Origin: a virus
Taxonomy: Duplodnaviria > Heunggongvirae > Uroviricota > Caudoviricetes
DNA length: 33,563 nt
Virus record (IMG/VR): IMGVR_UViG_2541047945_000006
Direction: 5' to 3' (one strand)
In this document: positions 3,794 through 20,023 of the stretch, in pieces
Numbering within the stretch: position 1 is the first letter of the stretch
How the letters are laid out: each line of letters begins with the position of its first letter
The notes under the pieces: model-generated
Seen by the model: the letters and a program-made list of their open reading frames with translations, nothing else
The model's database searches: none
Told to the model about the DNA's origin: nothing
Made by a program: the position numbers and the translations under genes

Positions 3794-4087
3794 TCAGTCA
3801 TTACTGATAGCGCCATAGCGTGAGCGGTAATTACGCAGGCGAGGGTCAATTTCAGGGAAGTGGGTATATGTGGCTTTGCGGAATGGTCGGATTGATGTCT
3901 GGTAAATTCGCTCGCGTTCTTCTTTCTCTGCAAGCCATATACAGTGGCGAAATTCCTTTTCCTCTTTCGTTTCCTGCGGTAGAGACATTATTCGATCGTA
4001 GTTTTTTCTGAATTTATCCAGCACCTCCGATACGGAATTGCCGGAACAGCGGCGTGGGTCATCCGCACCATACAGAGGCGCTGGCAT
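3794..4087 (-). CDS. Hypothetical protein (97 aa)
   Basis: ATG at 4085-4087 with AAGGA SD; fits the operon packing between ssb and downstream genes. Confidence 0.5.
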
Positions 4088-6385: not shown

Positions 6386-6589
6386 TCAAATAAGTGGTTT
6401 GCTGCCTAATTTCATTTTCTGGCGACCAACACAAGTCACCCCCATTTCACTGCGTGGCTTGCGGTAGTAAAGATTGTGCCTGTCTTTTAACCACATCAGG
6501 CTCGGTGGTTCTCGTGTACCCCTACAGCGAGAAATCGGATAAACTCTATTCACCCCTACAGAGAGCAAAAGAGAAACGCCGATGAACAA
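6386..6589 (-). other. ORF whose C-terminus resembles the lambda N C-terminus (possible N gene remnant)
   Basis: 67-aa track ORF ending ...YYRKPRSEMGVTCVGRQKMKLGSKPLI, which resembles the lambda N end (...WYSKPGERGITCSGRQKIKGKSIPLI) as I recall it; it lacks an arginine-rich motif. Confidence 0.4.
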
Positions 6590-7163
6590 CTCATGGTGGC
6601 AGGAACTAATGCATTTTTTCCTGCAAGGAATGACACTTAAACAGTTGATTCATATGCTAATCATCCTGATCATATTGATTATTGTTATGCCGGTAAGCGT
6701 AAAAGAATGGATAAACCTGCATAATCCAGAAATCCTTCCTCATTACTGGATGTATTACATCCTGTTGTTTTGCGTTAGCTATGTGCTTAACGGCGTTGTT
6801 AATTCCGCTTATCACGCTGTGACTGAAAGAATTGAGGTATTCGCTGCTCAGAAGCGCAAATCTAAAGAAGAGAAATACGTGCAAGATTTGTTTGATTCGT
6901 TAACTCTTGGAGAAAGAGCGTATTTGGCACTCGCTGTAGTCGCTAATAACCAGCTACAAACGGAAAAGGGAAGCCCTGAAGCAATCTCATTGCTCGAAAA
7001 AGGGCTTCTTATTCGGATACCTTCTGCTACTGGATATCCTGAAATCGACCGTTTTGTTATCCCAGAACGCTATAGAAATGAGTGCTACATTAGGTTTGCT
7101 GGGAAGAAAGACAGTCTTATGGATGAACTTATCGCTCAGGATAAGCACGGCAAAAACAAGTAA
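6582..7163 (+). CDS. sieB: Superinfection exclusion protein B
   Basis: 193-aa protein closely matching lambda/P22 SieB from memory (MNNSWWQELM.FFLQGMTLKQLIHMLIILI...); hydrophobic N-terminal region; convergent with N. Confidence 0.82.
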   Translation: MNNSWWQELMHFFLQGMTLKQLIHMLIILIILIIVMPVSVKEWINLHNPEILPHYWMYYILLFCVSYVLNGVVNSAYHAVTERIEVFAAQKRKSKEEKYVQDLFDSLTLGERAYLALAVVANNQLQTEKGSPEAISLLEKGLLIRIPSATGYPEIDRFVIPERYRNECYIRFAGKKDSLMDELIAQDKHGKNK

Positions 7164-15550: not shown

Positions 15551-16193
15551 TGGCAGCAAATACCGAAATATTTGGGTAGTTGGCGATCTGCACGGATGCT
15601 ACACGAACCTGATGAAAAAACTGGAGACGATAGGATTCGACACCAAAAAAGACCTGCTTATCTCGGTTGGCGATTTGGTTGATCGCGGTACAGAGAACGT
15701 CGAATGCCTGGAATTAATCACATTCCCCTGGTTCAGAGCTGTACGTGGAAACCATGAGCAAATGATGATTGATGGCTTATCAGAGCGTGGAAACGTCAAT
15801 CACTGGCTGTTTAATGGCGGTGGCTGGTTCTTTAATCTCGATTACGACAAAGAAATTCTGGCTAAAGCTCTTGCCCATAAAGCAGATGAACTTCCGTTAA
15901 TCATTGAACTGGTGAGTAAAGGTAAAAAATATGTCATCTGCCACGCCGATTATCCTTGTGACGAATACGAATTTGGAAAGCCAGTTGATTATCAGCAGGT
16001 AATCTGGAACCGCGAACGAATCAGCAACTCACAAGACGGGGTCGTGAAAGAAATCAAAGGCGCGGACACGTTCATCTTTGGTCATACGCCAGCAGTGAAA
16101 CCACTCAAATTTGCCAACCAGATGTATATCGATACTGGGGCAGTGTTCTGCGGAAATCTCACATTGATTCAGGTACAGGGAGAAGGCGCATGA
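15528..16193 (+). CDS. Ser/Thr protein phosphatase (lambda NinI-like)
   Basis: Calcineurin-like metallophosphatase motifs (GDLHG, GDLVDRG, GNHE); start taken at internal ATG 15528 (MRYYEKIDG) to give the 221-aa lambda-like protein. Confidence 0.85.
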
Positions 16194-16813
16194 GACTCGA
16201 AAGCGTAGCTAAATTTCATTCGCCAAAAAGCCCGATGATGAGTGACTCACCACGGGCCACGGCTTCTGACTCTCTTTCCGGTACTGATGTGATGGCTGCT
16301 ATGGGGATGGCGCAATCACAAGCCGGATTCGGAATGGCTGCATTCTGTGGTAAGCACGAACTCAGCCAGAACGACAAACAAAAGGCTATCAACTATCTGA
16401 TGCAATTTGCACACAAGGTATCGGGGAAATACCGTGGTGTGGCAAAGCTTGAAGGAAATACTAAGGCAAAGGTACTGCAAGTGCTCGCAACATTCGCTTA
16501 TGCGGATTATTGCCGTAGTGCCGCGACGCCGGGCGCAAGATGCAGAGATTGCCACGGTACAGGCCGTGCGGTTGATATAGCCAAAACGGAGCAGTGGGGG
16601 AGAGTTGTTGAGAAAGAGTGCGGAAGATGCAAAGGTGTCGGCTATTCAAGAATGCCAGCAAGCGCCGCATATCGCGCTGTAACGATGCTAATCCCAAACC
16701 TTACTCAACCCACCTGGTCACGCACTGTTAAGCCACTGTATGACGCTCTGGTGGCGCAATGCCACAAGGAAGAGTCAATCGCAGACAACATTTTGAATTC
16801 AGTTACACGTTAA
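16190..16813 (+). CDS. Q: Late-gene antiterminator Q
   Basis: 207-aa ORF matching lambda Q from memory, including the zinc-binding cysteines (CRDCHGTG...CGRCKG). Confidence 0.9.
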
Positions 16814-16855
16814 CAGCATGATTGCCACGGATGGCAACATATTAACGGCATGATA

Positions 16856-16884
16856 TTGACTTTTTGAATAAAGTTGGGTAAATT
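16856..16884 (+). promoter_or_regulatory. Late promoter pR' (-35 TTGACT, 17-bp spacer, -10 TAAATT) with associated qut region
   Basis: Near-consensus sigma70 elements directly downstream of Q; the sequence closely resembles the lambda pR' region as I recall it. Confidence 0.7.
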
Positions 16885-16891
16885 TGACCCA

Positions 16892-17086
16892 ACGATGGGT
16901 TAATTCGCTCGTTGTGGTAGTGAGATAAAAAGAGGCGGCGCTTACTACCGATTCCGCCTAGTTGGTCACTTCGACGTATCGTCTGGAACTCCAACCATCG
17001 CAGGCTGAGAGGTCTGTAAAATGCAATCCCGAAACAATTCGCAGGTAATAGTTAGAGCCTGCACAACGGTTTCGGGATTTTTTATT
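16892..17086 (+). ncRNA. 6S-RNA-like pR' leader transcript ending at tR' (hairpin 17025-17077 plus T-run)
   Basis: Predicted start about 16892; terminator stem ATCCCGAAAC...GTTTCGGGAT followed by TTTTTTATTT; resembles the lambda 6S RNA / tR' sequence from memory. Confidence 0.6.
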
Positions 17087-17087
17087 T

Positions 17088-17162
17088 GGGTCAGTCGTAT
17101 AAAGGTCATTACGGAAGGCTGTTAACCTTCTTATCGTGGTTCGAGTCCACGCTGTCCCGCCA
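17088..17162 (+). tRNA. tRNA-like gene, predicted anticodon GUU (Asn)
   Basis: Manual cloverleaf: acceptor GGGTCAG/CTGTCCC (one mismatch), U8, D-loop with GG, perfect 5-bp anticodon stem with loop CTGTTAA, T-arm CGTGG-TTCGAGT-CCACG, encoded GCCA 3' end. Confidence 0.5.
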
Positions 17163-17167
17163 AACAT

Positions 17168-17243
17168 GCTGGTTTAGCTCCAATGGTAGAGCGGTCGCCT
17201 TGTAAGCGAATGGGTAGCGGTTCAAGTCCGTTAACCAGCACCA
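17168..17243 (+). tRNA. tRNA-like gene, predicted anticodon UGU (Thr)
   Basis: Manual cloverleaf: perfect acceptor GCTGGTT/AACCAGC, D-arm GCTC/GAGC, anticodon loop CTTGTAA, T-loop TTCAAGT, encoded ACCA 3' end. Confidence 0.6.
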
Positions 17244-17361
17244 TAACTGAGCCGTAGCCACTGGCTATCCTGAATTCATCAGTGATAGTTACGCTGCGGC
17301 CTTCTTTTTTCCCCTTCCCAATATAAGAACTACGCAATCCGTTACTGGCGGAGGCGTTGCT

Positions 17362-17607
17362 ATGAAATCAATGGACAAAATCTCAACTGGCATTGCCTAC
17401 GGAACATCTGCTGGTAGTGCGGGATACTGGTTTTTGCAGTGGTTGGATCAGGTCAGTCCGTCACAGTGGGCTGCGATTGGAGTGCTTGGAAGCCTTGTGT
17501 TGGGTTTTCTCACTTATCTGACAAATCTGTATTTCAAAATCAGAGAAGACAGACGAAAGGCTGCGAGTGAACCGCCCCGGGTTTCCTGGAGAGTATTTTA
17601 TCTGTGA
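17362..17607 (+). CDS. S: Phage-21-type pinholin S21 with IS-altered C-terminus
   Basis: Dual-start MKSMDKI and SAR-type TM region match S21 from memory; the last codons (ARGE-stop in intact S21) are replaced by a read-through into the IS end ([13 protein letters not shown]). Confidence 0.8.
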
Positions 17608-17609
17608 AC

Positions 17610-18500
17610 TCAGGCTGCCAGATCATCGTTTCCGATGGAAGCATAATAAGCTTTTTCTGCTTCTGCCGGAGGAGTATGGCCCAGCCTTTCCAGCAATCGT
17701 CGATTGTTATACCAGTCCACCCACGTGAGTGTGGCCAGTTCCACTTCTGCACGGTTTTTCCAGCTCTTACGGTGTATTACCTCCGCTTTGTAAAGACCAT
17801 TGATGCTCTCCGCCATCGCGTTGTCATACGAGTCGCCTGTACTTCCTGTTGATGCCAGTAATCCGGCTTCCTTAAGCCGCTGTGTGTAGGCCAGCGATAC
17901 ATACTGAGAACCTTTATCACTGTGATGGACCGTGCCGGACGGTCGACGGGCCCATAACGCCTGCTCCAGTGCATCCAGCACGAATGTCGTCTCCATGGAC
18001 GATGAGACCCGCCACCCCACAATGTATCCGGCAAACACATCAATGATGAACGCCACATAGACGAAGCCCTGCCATGTGCTGACGTAAGTAAAATCAGCCA
18101 CCCACAGCTGGTCAGGTCGTTCTGCCACGAACTGACGGTTTACGCGGTCGCCTGCGGCAACGGCTTTCCGGCTGATGGTCGTACGGACCTTTTTACCCCG
18201 GAGAACACCGGCAAGTCCCATAACCGCCATGAGACGTGCCACAGTGCATCTGGCCACTCTGATACCTTCCCGTAACAACTGACGCCAGACTTTACGCACA
18301 CCGTATACCTTGTGATTTTCATCGTATACGCGCTGTATCTCTTTCTTCAGCCAGTCATCGCGCTGCGCACGGGCACTGCGTTTATCCGGATGATGTCGCT
18401 GTTGCTGACAGTGGTAATACGTTGACGGGGCAATATGCAGTTCGCTGCATAGCGGTCCGACCCCGTACTGCTCACGCAGCTTATCCAGCAGTGGCATCAT
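17610..18500 (-). CDS. IS3-family transposase OrfB (DDE integrase-like catalytic domain)
   Basis: 296-aa ORF of typical IS3-family OrfB character; overlaps orfA as expected for -1 frameshift fusion. Confidence 0.85.
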
Positions 18501-18823
18501 TTTTTCCAGAGGCGGTCGAACTCCGCCTTCGCAAAATAAGCGGAAGCCTGGCGAAGGATATCGTTACTGCGGCGCAGTTCACGATTTTCACGCTCCAGCT
18601 CTTTCAGACGCTGACGTTCAGCGGTGGTGAGCCCTCCATCACCGCCCCCGGTATCCCGCTCATGCTGGCGAACCCAGACACGCAGAGTCTCCGGCGTACA
18701 GCCAATCTTTGGAGCAATGGAACAAATTGTCGCCCATTGTGAGTCATATTCGCCCTGACTTTCCAGAACCATACGGACTGCCCGTTGACGGACTTCAGGG
18801 GAAAAACGAGTATTTTTAGTCAT
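18497..18823 (-). CDS. IS3-family transposase OrfA (HTH plus leucine zipper)
   Basis: 108-aa ORF ([57 protein letters not shown]...) that I recall as IS629/IS1203-type OrfA. Confidence 0.85.
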
Positions 18824-18889
18824 CCTGTTTACCTCTTTCTCAGGAAGTTTAGTCTCCAGGATTCCCGGGGCGGTTCAGAGAGGTGAATA

Positions 18890-19387
18890 ATGCCTCCATC
18901 ATTACGAAAAGCCGTTGCTGCTGCTATTGGTGGCGGGGCTATTGCCATAGCATCTGTGTTAATCACTGGCCCAAGTGGTAACGATGGTCTGGAAGGTGTG
19001 AGACATAATCCTTACAAAGACATAGTTGGTGTATGGACTGTATGTTACGGGCATACAGGAAAAGACATCATTCCCGGTAAAACGTATACCGAAGCAGAAT
19101 GCAAAGCCCTCCTGAATAAAGACCTTGCCACGGTCGCCAGACAAATTAACCCGTACATCAAAGTCGATATACCGGAAACAACGCGCGGCGCTCTTTACTC
19201 GTTCGTTTACAACGTGGGTGCAGGCAATTTCAGAACATCGACGCTTCTTCGCAAAATCAACCAGGGTGATATCAAAGGTGCGTGTGACCAGCTACGTCGC
19301 TGGACATACGCTGGCGGTAAGCAATGGAAAGGGCTGATGACCCGTCGTGATATTGAGCGTGAAGTCTGTTTGTGGGGGCAGCAATGA
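18890..19387 (+). CDS. R: SAR endolysin (phage 21 R21-like lysozyme)
   Basis: N-terminal Gly/Ala-rich signal-anchor-release domain ([18 protein letters not shown]) followed by a lysozyme domain; begins 10 nt after the IS end. Confidence 0.85.
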
Positions 19388-19821
19388 GCAGGTTAACCGC
19401 GATTATCTCCGCTCTGATTATCAGCATCATCGTCTGCCTGTCATGGGCTGTTAATCATTACCGTGATAACGCCATCGCCTACAAAGAGCAGCGCGATAAG
19501 GCCGCATCCACAATCGCTGACATGCAGAAGCGTCAACGTGATGTAGCAGAACTTGACGCCAGATACACAAAGGAGCTTGCTGATGCTAACGCGACTATCG
19601 AAAGTCTCCGTGCTGATGTTTCTGCTGGTCGTAAGCGCCTGCAAGTCGCCGCCACCTGTGCAAAGTCAACGACCGGAGCCAGCAGCATGGGCGATGGAGA
19701 AAGCCCAAGACTTACAGCAGATGCTGAACTCAATTATTACCGTCTACGAAGTGGAATCGACAGGATAACCGCGCAGGTTAACTACCTGCAGGAGTACATC
19801 AGGACGCAATGCCTTCGATGA
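19384..19821 (+). CDS. Rz: Rz i-spanin
   Basis: Start at internal ATG ([31 protein letters not shown]...) overlapping the R stop; resembles lambda Rz from memory. Confidence 0.8.
19583..19768 (+). CDS. Rz1: Rz1 o-spanin (lipoprotein) embedded in Rz in the +1 frame
   Basis: 61-aa ORF with lipobox LVVSAC and a proline-rich mature region, nested inside Rz. Confidence 0.65.
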
Positions 19822-19995
19822 TAGCGATAATTTTACTCATCATCCTTCACATCTGGCTCTGTAGACAGGGTGGTGATCACTTCTGGAGTAAATCCAGATT
19901 AAACATCTCATTGCTGATGCTTGATATTGAGCATCTGGCGCGCAGTAAGGGGCTGCGTTGAGATAAGAGCCAGTTCATTACAAATACCAGGATTT

Positions 19996-20023
19996 AGCCT
20001 CGCATTCGCGGGGCTTTTTTATA
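19996..20023 (+). terminator. Putative intrinsic terminator after the lysis cassette
   Basis: AGCCTCGC-ATTC-GCGGGGCT hairpin (one G-T pair) followed by TTTTTTAT. Confidence 0.5.

Follow-up and report, generated by a model that had tools for sequence, protein, structure and literature searches.

The window, by which we mean the whole 33,563-nucleotide stretch analyzed here, contains two tRNA genes at the head of its late operon: a 75-nt tRNA-Asn(GUU) at positions 17088-17162 (+ strand) and a 76-nt tRNA-Thr(UGU) at 17168-17243 (+ strand), separated by the 5-nt spacer AACAT (17163-17167, + strand; read from the sequence). Over the 33.5 kb, ARAGORN calls these two tRNA genes and no others. Rfam matches each of them over the full RF00005 model, with 55.3 bits (E-value 1.8e-9) for tRNA-Asn and 61.2 bits (E-value 4.3e-11) for tRNA-Thr, both above the gathering score of 29 bits. 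The coordinates and anticodons are those of the initial annotation, which had folded Asn-GUU and Thr-UGU tRNA-like genes by hand at 17088-17243 and had pointed to tRNA prediction programs as the check.

Both tRNAs possess U8, the D-loop GG, U33 and a purine at position 37, as seen in the sequence and in the cmscan alignment. Their T-loops, UUCGAGU and UUCAAGU in the pair, both fit the UUCRANY consensus, and the CCA 3′ end is encoded in both genes; U8, the D-loop GG, the T-loop (given as TTCRANT) and the encoded CCA had been listed for the two genes before and are all readable in each. The tRNA-Asn features a U4.U69 mismatch in the acceptor stem and a U13.U22 mismatch that reduces the D-stem to 3 bp, two irregularities already recognized in the first gene. 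Its anticodon stem, GAAGG/CCUUC, retains the full 5 bp and its discriminator base is G73. The tRNA-Thr anticodon stem, GUCGC/GCGAA, is devoid of the CNG motif and is left with 4 bp by a G27.A43 mismatch at its top. This mismatch was absent from the initial annotation. Single-sequence minimum free energy folding of the two tRNAs is weakly better than that of shuffled sequences (z of -1.7 and -1.5) and fails to recover the cloverleaf of tRNA-Thr; such poor folding is usual for single tRNA sequences and was not counted against either gene. The E. coli ThrRS identity set is G1-C72, C2-G71, G35 and U36, all of which are present in the window tRNA-Thr along with A73. A review assigns ThrRS identity to acceptor-stem pairs and the anticodon, and defines the E. 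coli tRNA-Asn identity set as the GUU anticodon plus G73 (PMC9976931); G34, U35, U36 and G73 are all found in the window tRNA-Asn.

The two genes are embedded in a late control region of lambda type. Downstream of NinG and a NinI-type phosphatase lies a 207-residue lambda-type antiterminator Q (16190-16813, + strand; Pfam PF03589 Antiterm, E-value 1.5e-57); our alignment took in Q at its 3′ end, which is near-identical to lambda. A promoter scan identified the PR′ late promoter (TTGACT-17 nt-TAAATT; 16856-16884, + strand), in a region that aligns as near-identical to that of lambda. It is the sole plus-strand sigma-70-like site in the scanned interval 16000-18000, with none other upstream of the tRNAs. 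Folding and alignment to lambda locate the tR′ intrinsic terminator of the 6S-like leader at 17025-17087 (+ strand), as a hairpin followed by UUUUUUAUUU. The fold of 17015-17090 has an energy of -26 kcal/mol (z of -4.4), the hairpin and U-run end at about 17083, and the window aligns with the lambda tR′ as far as the U-run; tRNA-Asn begins 4 nt past the U6 run.

On the other side of the tRNAs, folding and alignment delineate a conserved right flank (17251-17310, + strand) that comprises a long hairpin (17251-17300; -27.7 kcal/mol, z of -5.7) followed by CUUCUUUUUU. This flank is common to phage 21, Sf6 and lambda, the lambda U-run being weaker, and was found at 96 of 126 related loci. The hairpin and U-run look like a terminator, in which case the tRNAs would be bracketed by tR′ and a putative second terminator. 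A literature search for tandem terminators in the lambda late leader returned no report; they were reportedly described in 1983. The lysis cassette follows with an S21-type pinholin as its first gene (17362-17607, + strand; Pfam PF04971, E-value 1.3e-35), an R21-type endolysin (18890-19387, + strand; Pfam Phage_lysozyme) and Rz (19372-19821, + strand; Pfam Phage_lysis). With tR′ ending at about 17083 and phage-21-type lysis genes downstream, the tRNAs do lie between tR′ and the lysis cassette, as had been proposed.

The lysis cassette is interrupted by a 1310-bp IS629/IS1203-like element of the IS3 family (17568-18877, - strand), delineated by its repeats, identity, domains and junctions. It is flanked by a 3-bp GAG target duplication, ends in 41-nt terminal inverted repeats, encodes transposase domains, is 99.6-99.9% identical to IS3-family elements and contains an ALIL frameshift pseudoknot (Rfam, 120 bits); matching E. 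coli records annotate an IS3-like IS1203-family transposase at this place. The insertion hits the 3′ end of the holin gene, replacing the last three codons by read-through into the element, and in silico excision restores exactly the S21 protein of phage 21. Without the element, the lysis region is 96.5% identical to phage 21 over 1.1 kb. The element separates holin from endolysin and resides outside the tRNA cassette but within the same late transcript. Because this transcript is interrupted downstream of the tRNAs, the prophage may be lysis-defective while its tRNA genes are intact.

The remainder of the window corresponds to a P22-like prophage, with an integrase, abc2, erf, ssb, a sieB-related gene and an N-like gene, as well as a cI region, a replication module and a nin region. 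The abc2 gene (3794-4087, - strand; PHROG 656 'abc2 anti-RecBCD', E-value 2.6e-55) belongs to the early left operon. The virion genes are P22-like, with 94-96% identity to CUS-3, phiv205-1, Kapi1 and Sf101.

Aligning the window with lambda shows that a segment of about 158 bp containing the tRNAs stands in for an unrelated lambda segment of similar length, the flanks being shared. About 60 bp downstream of it are common to the window, lambda, phage 21 and Sf6, after which the holin modules diverge. The statement that lambda has no tRNAs in this slot agrees with our searches of the equivalent lambda segment, in which ARAGORN found 0 genes and Rfam nothing at E<=1. The idea that the lambda filler is a decayed tRNA pair was rejected on this complete lack of tRNA signal at E<=1.

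The same gene pair is annotated at the same place in phage 21 (OL657228), Sf6 (AF547987), SfI, mEp506, Kapi1, BTP1, SPN9CC and others; the Sf6 record notes its tRNAs as 'similar to phage 21', and the cassette is discussed in the SfI (PMC3636060) and phage L (PMC8022706) papers. It is carried by 369 of 5426 complete E. coli genomes, and RefSeq annotates both genes. The window pair is the phage 21/Sf6 tRNA-Asn/tRNA-Thr late-leader cassette, which is already known. The earlier description of acquired cargo in the late transcript was thus right in that the tRNA cargo is real, whereas its treatment as novel did not stand for a cassette annotated long ago. The tRNA-Asn of the window is base-for-base the same as those of phage 21, Sf6, mEp506, an E2348/69 prophage and ST160, and the tRNA-Thr, with G26, represents the second commonest allele. 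Identity to the host genes amounts to 61.5% between tRNA-Asn and asnT and to 69% between tRNA-Thr and thrU. Because both genes are far from their host counterparts, both tRNAs are, judged by sequence divergence, members of a phage lineage rather than recent host captures. Recent capture of a host tRNA-Asn gene, examined as a candidate in its own right, was rejected at this level of identity to asnT.

To place the cassette among its relatives, we searched IMG/VR, GTDB genomes and GenBank phages and gathered 132 loci at which the Asn gene is present. The array consists of Asn followed by Thr(UGU) at 102 of them; the others comprise Asn alone, Asn-Gly(UCC) and a Klebsiella-type Asn-Phe-Thr-Arg(UCU). 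ARAGORN found no tRNA-Lys in the window, and none of the 132 related arrays includes one. The spacer reads AATAT at 52 and AACAT at 45 of the related loci. A U-run occurs no more than 16 nt upstream of tRNA-Asn at 116 of the 132 loci, mostly as part of a phage-21-type tR′; a lambda-type tR′ precedes the cassette, as in the window, at a minority of about 16 loci. No complete E. coli genome carries the interval 16100-20000 contiguously, the best match covering 78% of it in three pieces.

The allele set obtained from these loci comprises 19 distinct Asn and 21 distinct Thr sequences. Among the Asn alleles, six base pairs (20 cells) are changed on both sides, for example 5:68 (C-G to A-U), 6:67 (A-U to G-C) and 7:66 (G-C to A-U), as well as 28:42 (A-U to C-G or U-A) and 29:41 (A-U to U-A) in the anticodon stem. 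Thirteen cells in five pairs are likewise changed on both sides among the Thr alleles. The observed covariation score was reached by 0 of 500 shuffles for Asn and Thr alike, and slid registers yielded 0-2 pairs; the Asn T-arm and the Asn pairs 30:40 and 31:39 had been fixed by the search pattern. Anticodon loops, T-loops and CCA are invariant over the 19 Asn and 21 Thr alleles. The mismatches are conserved as well: 17 of the 19 Asn alleles have U4.U69 and all 19 have U13.U22, and G27.A43 is present in all 21 Thr alleles. The suggestion that the first gene may be degenerate is not supported by these data, as its mismatches are conserved, six other pairs covary and the gene is base-identical in the five relatives named above. 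Taken together, the allele comparison shows that both genes are bona fide tRNAs under purifying selection.

The same comparison bears on the view that the two genes are decaying relics, or linkers for recombination at the boundary where Q and lysis modules are exchanged. The two stem mismatches of tRNA-Asn would fit such a view, as would the near-identity of the cassette across phages with dissimilar Q and holin modules on either side. Decay does occur: the second gene of the ST160/phage L lineage, its anticodon loop collapsed to 4 nt, is not called by ARAGORN and is truly degenerate. Against both views, six Asn and five Thr pairs of the cassette alleles have undergone compensatory double substitutions, the unusual mismatches have persisted, and the anticodon loops, T-loops and CCA are unchanged. 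Furthermore, a phage tRNA-Thr(UGU) restores ACA decoding in vivo (PMC12445682). We therefore consider decay or a linker role extremely improbable for the window pair.

The simplest reading of how the tRNAs are expressed is that they are transcribed from PR′ once the antiterminator Q allows the polymerase to pass tR′ into the tRNAs and late genes, and are then processed; because they lie downstream of tR′, they are expected to be made late. As CCA is encoded, host RNase P and 3′ trimming would excise the tRNAs from the late transcript, and host AsnRS and ThrRS would charge them, given that the known identity elements are present. For phage L, the route of tRNA expression was stated as not known (PMC8022706).

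A function for the tRNA-Thr is suggested by recent work on the P2 Old protein. That study (Govande et al., NAR 2025, PMC12445682) describes Old as a Toprim nuclease and the effector of classical P2-lambda interference, which is triggered by RecBCD inhibition and kills by cutting host tRNA-Thr(UGU) in the anticodon stem, after C28 and C40 of paired CNG motifs (positions 28-30 and 40-42). The same study reports that phage tRNA-Thr(UGU) genes rescue Old-damaged cells, and that the phage 21 tRNA, tRNA-Thr21, protects cells and is largely resistant to cleavage by virtue of a shortened anticodon stem and the changes C28U/G42A; the rescue, by a plasmid-borne copy, was partial and the colonies stayed small (PMC12445682). 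The window tRNA-Thr reads UCG/CGA at the CNG sites instead of CUG/CAG, has the 4-bp stem and is identical to tRNA-Thr21 in these features, while its UGU anticodon is that of the primary target of Old. By analogy with tRNA-Thr21, the best-supported reading of the window tRNA-Thr is that of a nuclease-resistant stand-in for host tRNA-Thr(UGU), which would keep ACA codons readable. The phage would inhibit RecBCD, P2 Old would respond by cutting host tRNA-Thr(UGU), and the phage tRNA-Thr would replace it. The presence of Abc2 in the prophage is relevant here because RecBCD inhibition is the known trigger of Old.

The timing of these events poses a problem, as Old fires early, via a RecBCD inhibitor of the early operon, and the window tRNAs are late-encoded; ACA codons also occur three times in Q itself and four times in the N-like gene. 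One conceivable route around it is leaky read-through of tR′ from a constitutive PR′ into a cassette closed by the putative second terminator, perhaps as a short transcript of the tRNAs alone. The tRNAs would in this case appear ahead of Q and the lysis genes and would not depend on them, so that, if true, an antidote encoded late could still meet a nuclease triggered early.

The role of the tRNA-Asn is more tentative. Host tRNA-Asn is cleaved by P2 Old (PMC12445682) and by the AriB nuclease of PARIS (PMC12409363), in both cases more slowly than the main target. AriB prefers tRNA-Lys(UUU), then Thr(UGU), then Asn(GUU), and cuts at UAAU39C|N (PMC12409363). Host asnT has a paired CNG (CGG/CCG), A37 and U39. 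The window tRNA-Asn, which is the common E. coli/Salmonella allele, has AAG/CUU where asnT has CGG/CCG, with both CNGs and U39 gone. The tRNA-Asn would serve either as a resistant replacement for host tRNA-Asn(GUU), or simply as a supplier for the many AAC codons of the late genes, or as both. The changes fit a second resistant replacement, but the case for it is weak because the anticodon stem keeps its 5 bp, Klebsiella-clade Asn alleles (GCAGG/CCUGC) retain the paired CNG, the P1 tRNA-Asn keeps UAAUCA, and C39 in the Asn allele set is partly forced by the search pattern. A general loss of CNG from the Asn gene was rejected on account of these Klebsiella-clade sequences.

Neither window tRNA has U39, position 39 being G in Thr and C in Asn, unlike host thrU and asnT, which contain UAAUC; the protective Thr and Asn variants of T5 are likewise without U39. 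These features could indicate an anti-PARIS module that arose as a substitute for the targets of AriB, but we find this improbable. Absence of U39 is not rare among tRNAs, so that the coincidence is weak evidence, and the P1 tRNA-Asn retains the AriB motif. More importantly, tRNA-Lys is present in 0 of 132 arrays, whereas the T5 tRNA-Lys is required to escape B185 PARIS, and T4 depends on a supplied tRNA-Lys despite encoding a tRNA-Thr(UGU) (PMC12409363). PARIS evasion was accordingly downgraded as the main reading, all arrays being without tRNA-Lys.

The codon-usage comparison that had been called for offers a further explanation for the pair, namely pure supply for ACA and AAC/AAU codons during the late burst, with no anti-nuclease role. 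Relative to a host reference of 48 sampled K-12 genes, ACA is 2.9-fold enriched in the late genes (14.9 versus 4.9 per 1000) and AAC 1.5-fold (30.3 versus 19.6 per 1000), total Asn amounting to 49 versus 34 per 1000. Of the 20 Asn codons in the coat gene, 17 are AAC and 3 are AAT. In the K-12 stretches examined, thrU is the only tRNA-Thr(UGU) gene annotated, and E. coli is not known to have another one elsewhere. Asn supply is unlikely to be limiting, because E. coli has several tRNA-Asn genes. Moreover, more enriched codons of the late genes, AGA and AGG (5.8-fold), AAG (2.8-fold) and TCA (2.8-fold), have no phage tRNA. The same argument for codon supply was made for SfI, in which ACA accounts for 17.3% versus 7.1% (PMC3636060); the Asn signal was overlooked there, the codon considered being CAA, which encodes Gln. 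It was also made for phage L, whose coat gene has AAC at 24 of 25 Asn codons (PMC8022706). Decoding by itself does not account for the invariance of the destabilizing G27.A43 of tRNA-Thr over 21 alleles, and this mismatch is one of two experimentally defined determinants of Old resistance (PMC12445682). Codon supply as the sole function is thus a reading that we take seriously but hold to be somewhat unlikely. Codon supply and nuclease evasion are compatible with one another.

In summary, we think it quite likely that the window carries two functional tRNAs that form a known cassette and are expressed via PR′ and Q, with the tRNA-Thr acting as an Old-resistant stand-in and the tRNA-Asn doing the same, supplying codons, or both. 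A bolder version of this reading, a dedicated two-tRNA countermeasure to OLD-family Toprim tRNA nucleases, P2 Old and PARIS AriB among them, with a resistant tRNA-Asn, a two-terminator bracket and leaky early read-through of tR′, appears rather unlikely to us as a whole. The only new angle is a modest one, suggested by the sequence: the putative role of the tRNA-Asn and the terminator-like bracket.

Several phage systems share features with the window cassette. T5 escapes PARIS with variant copies of tRNA-Lys, tRNA-Thr and tRNA-Asn (PMC11464382, PMC12409363), and the principle is shared, as phage copies keep the anticodons of the host targets while the anticodon-stem sequence is altered. Positions 36-41 of tRNA-Thr read UAAGCA in T5 and UAAGCG in the window, although the tRNAs are only about 61-63% identical overall. 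The full T5 set includes the essential tRNA-Lys, which the cassette never has, and T5 is a virulent phage with several annotated promoters dedicated to its tRNA genes in the region.

P1 and P7 also carry a tRNA-Asn followed in tandem by an adjacent tRNA-Thr, with the same anticodons. The Thr genes are 80.5% identical to that of the window and the Asn genes 58%, in a different genomic context. In P1, unlike in the window, Thr has retained the paired CNG together with all 5 bp of the stem, and Asn has retained UAAUCA, so that the changes in the predicted resistance motifs are not shared with P1. The Stx-converting lambdoid phages harbor the ileZ-argN-argO tRNAs downstream of Q, in the leader that precedes the late genes. 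These are classically explained by rare-codon supply. Their anticodons differ, corresponding to rare Ile and Arg codons, and their sequences are unrelated to the window pair. The ileX gene was cited as an example of a late-leader tRNA in the SfI paper (PMC3636060).

Sf6 and P22-like phages (SfI, Kapi1, BTP1, CUS-3-like) possess the same two genes in the same late-leader slot. In Sf6, the antiterminator that accompanies the cassette is Q21-like and the holin is a lambda-type S, whereas the window couples the cassette to a lambda-type Q and S21. In the prophage of EPEC E2348/69, the tRNAs match those of the window at 100%, but Q is different and the prophage has an HNH gene and a lambda-type holin. 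Phage 21 (CPT_21_64, CPT_21_65) shares the gene order, the 5-nt spacer (only its length was compared) and the position of the pair directly after tR′, with 100% identity for tRNA-Asn and 75 of 76 positions (98.7%) for tRNA-Thr, the anticodon arm being identical and position 26 being A in phage 21 and G in the window. The likeness extends downstream to the hairpin, the S21 holin, R21 and Rz, except for the holin 3′ end, where the window, unlike phage 21, has the insertion element. Upstream, phage 21 has Q21 and its own terminator, in contrast to the lambda-type Q, PR′ and tR′ of the window. What the window contributes is therefore its context: a phage 21 cassette behind a lambda-type Q/tR′, within a P22-like prophage that carries an anti-RecBCD gene.

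Directly 3' of the tRNA-Thr gene lies a conserved hairpin followed by CUUCUUUUUU (17251-17310), with a predicted folding energy of -27.7 kcal/mol (z -5.7), which was found in 96 of the 126 related loci and is common to phage 21, Sf6 and lambda, the U-run being weaker in lambda. This hairpin and U-run look like a terminator, and the putative terminator may bracket the two tRNAs into a short transcription unit. The correct codons for tRNA-Asn(GUU) are AAC and AAU, CAA being a Gln codon. AAC and AAU are enriched in the late genes of the window, unlike the null result of the SfI genome paper, which tested the bias for tRNA-Asn(GUU) on 'CAA' and concluded that there was none (PMC3636060).

The slot after Q holds differing arrays, all built around the same tRNA-Asn, which is their constant member, partly through an ascertainment effect because our locus collection was anchored on tRNA-Asn. 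Klebsiella phages carry an Asn-Phe(GAA)-Thr(UGU)-Arg(UCU) array (for example 2501-2820 of Klebsiella phage ST16-OXA48phi5.2, L007), and an Asn-Gly(UCC) array is present in eight viral contigs and in E. albertii (locus L017, 5473-5706). The Asn-Thr cassette of the window recurs in identical form on short contigs of two gut metagenome-assembled genomes with non-enterobacterial GTDB labels (L014 and L018, labelled Segatella copri and Collinsella sp.), and we interpret these most likely as mis-binned enterobacterial phage contigs.

The gene 3' of tRNA-Asn in the ST160/ST64T/L lineage (2081-2149 in Salmonella phage ST160, L008) scores 42 bits as a tRNA, has an anticodon loop collapsed to 4 nt and received no ARAGORN call. 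In the phage L paper this gene is assigned as tRNA-Leu(UAA) (PMC8022706); our interpretation is that it probably descends from the Thr gene, either as a pseudogene or as an aberrant tRNA. A chimeric tRNA-Thr allele in an IMG/VR contig (L127, 1359-1512) combines a 5' acceptor strand and D-arm of the phage type with an anticodon arm, T-arm and 3' acceptor strand identical to those of host thrU, and is followed 3 nt downstream by a tRNA-Gly(UCC). The mosaic sequence suggests that phage and host tRNA genes have recombined or, alternatively, that the allele belongs to a separate cassette lineage.

Within the lysis region, a 1310-bp IS629/IS1203-like element of the IS3 family (17568-18877) is inserted into the final codons of the S21 holin gene, replacing the original C-terminus of the protein (...KAARGE*) with a different one and setting the holin apart from the endolysin. 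The element has terminal inverted repeats of 41 nt, is flanked by a 3-bp target duplication (GAG), and contains two ORFs on the minus strand (17610-18500 and 18497-18823) and an ALIL pseudoknot (18426-18542). Since removal of the element together with one GAG copy regains the exact phage 21 S21, the sequence indicates a recent insertion, which may have left the prophage lysis-defective.

The prophage also encodes Erf, SSB and the anti-RecBCD protein Abc2 (3794-4087, minus strand; PHROG 656, E 2.6e-55), a member of the function class that triggers P2 Old. For the plus-strand product of 6582-7163, the best match is PHROG 1301 (E 1.6e-122), described as 'superinfection exclusion; inhibits SieB', and its second, weak match is SieB itself.

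Phage P1 carries an adjoining tRNA-Asn and tRNA-Thr(UGU) in the same order as the window (L009, 2925-3078). Identity to the window genes reaches 80.5% for tRNA-Thr but only 58% for tRNA-Asn; the P1 tRNA-Thr retains the Old cleavage motif CNG, and the P1 tRNA-Asn retains the AriB cleavage motif UAAUCA.
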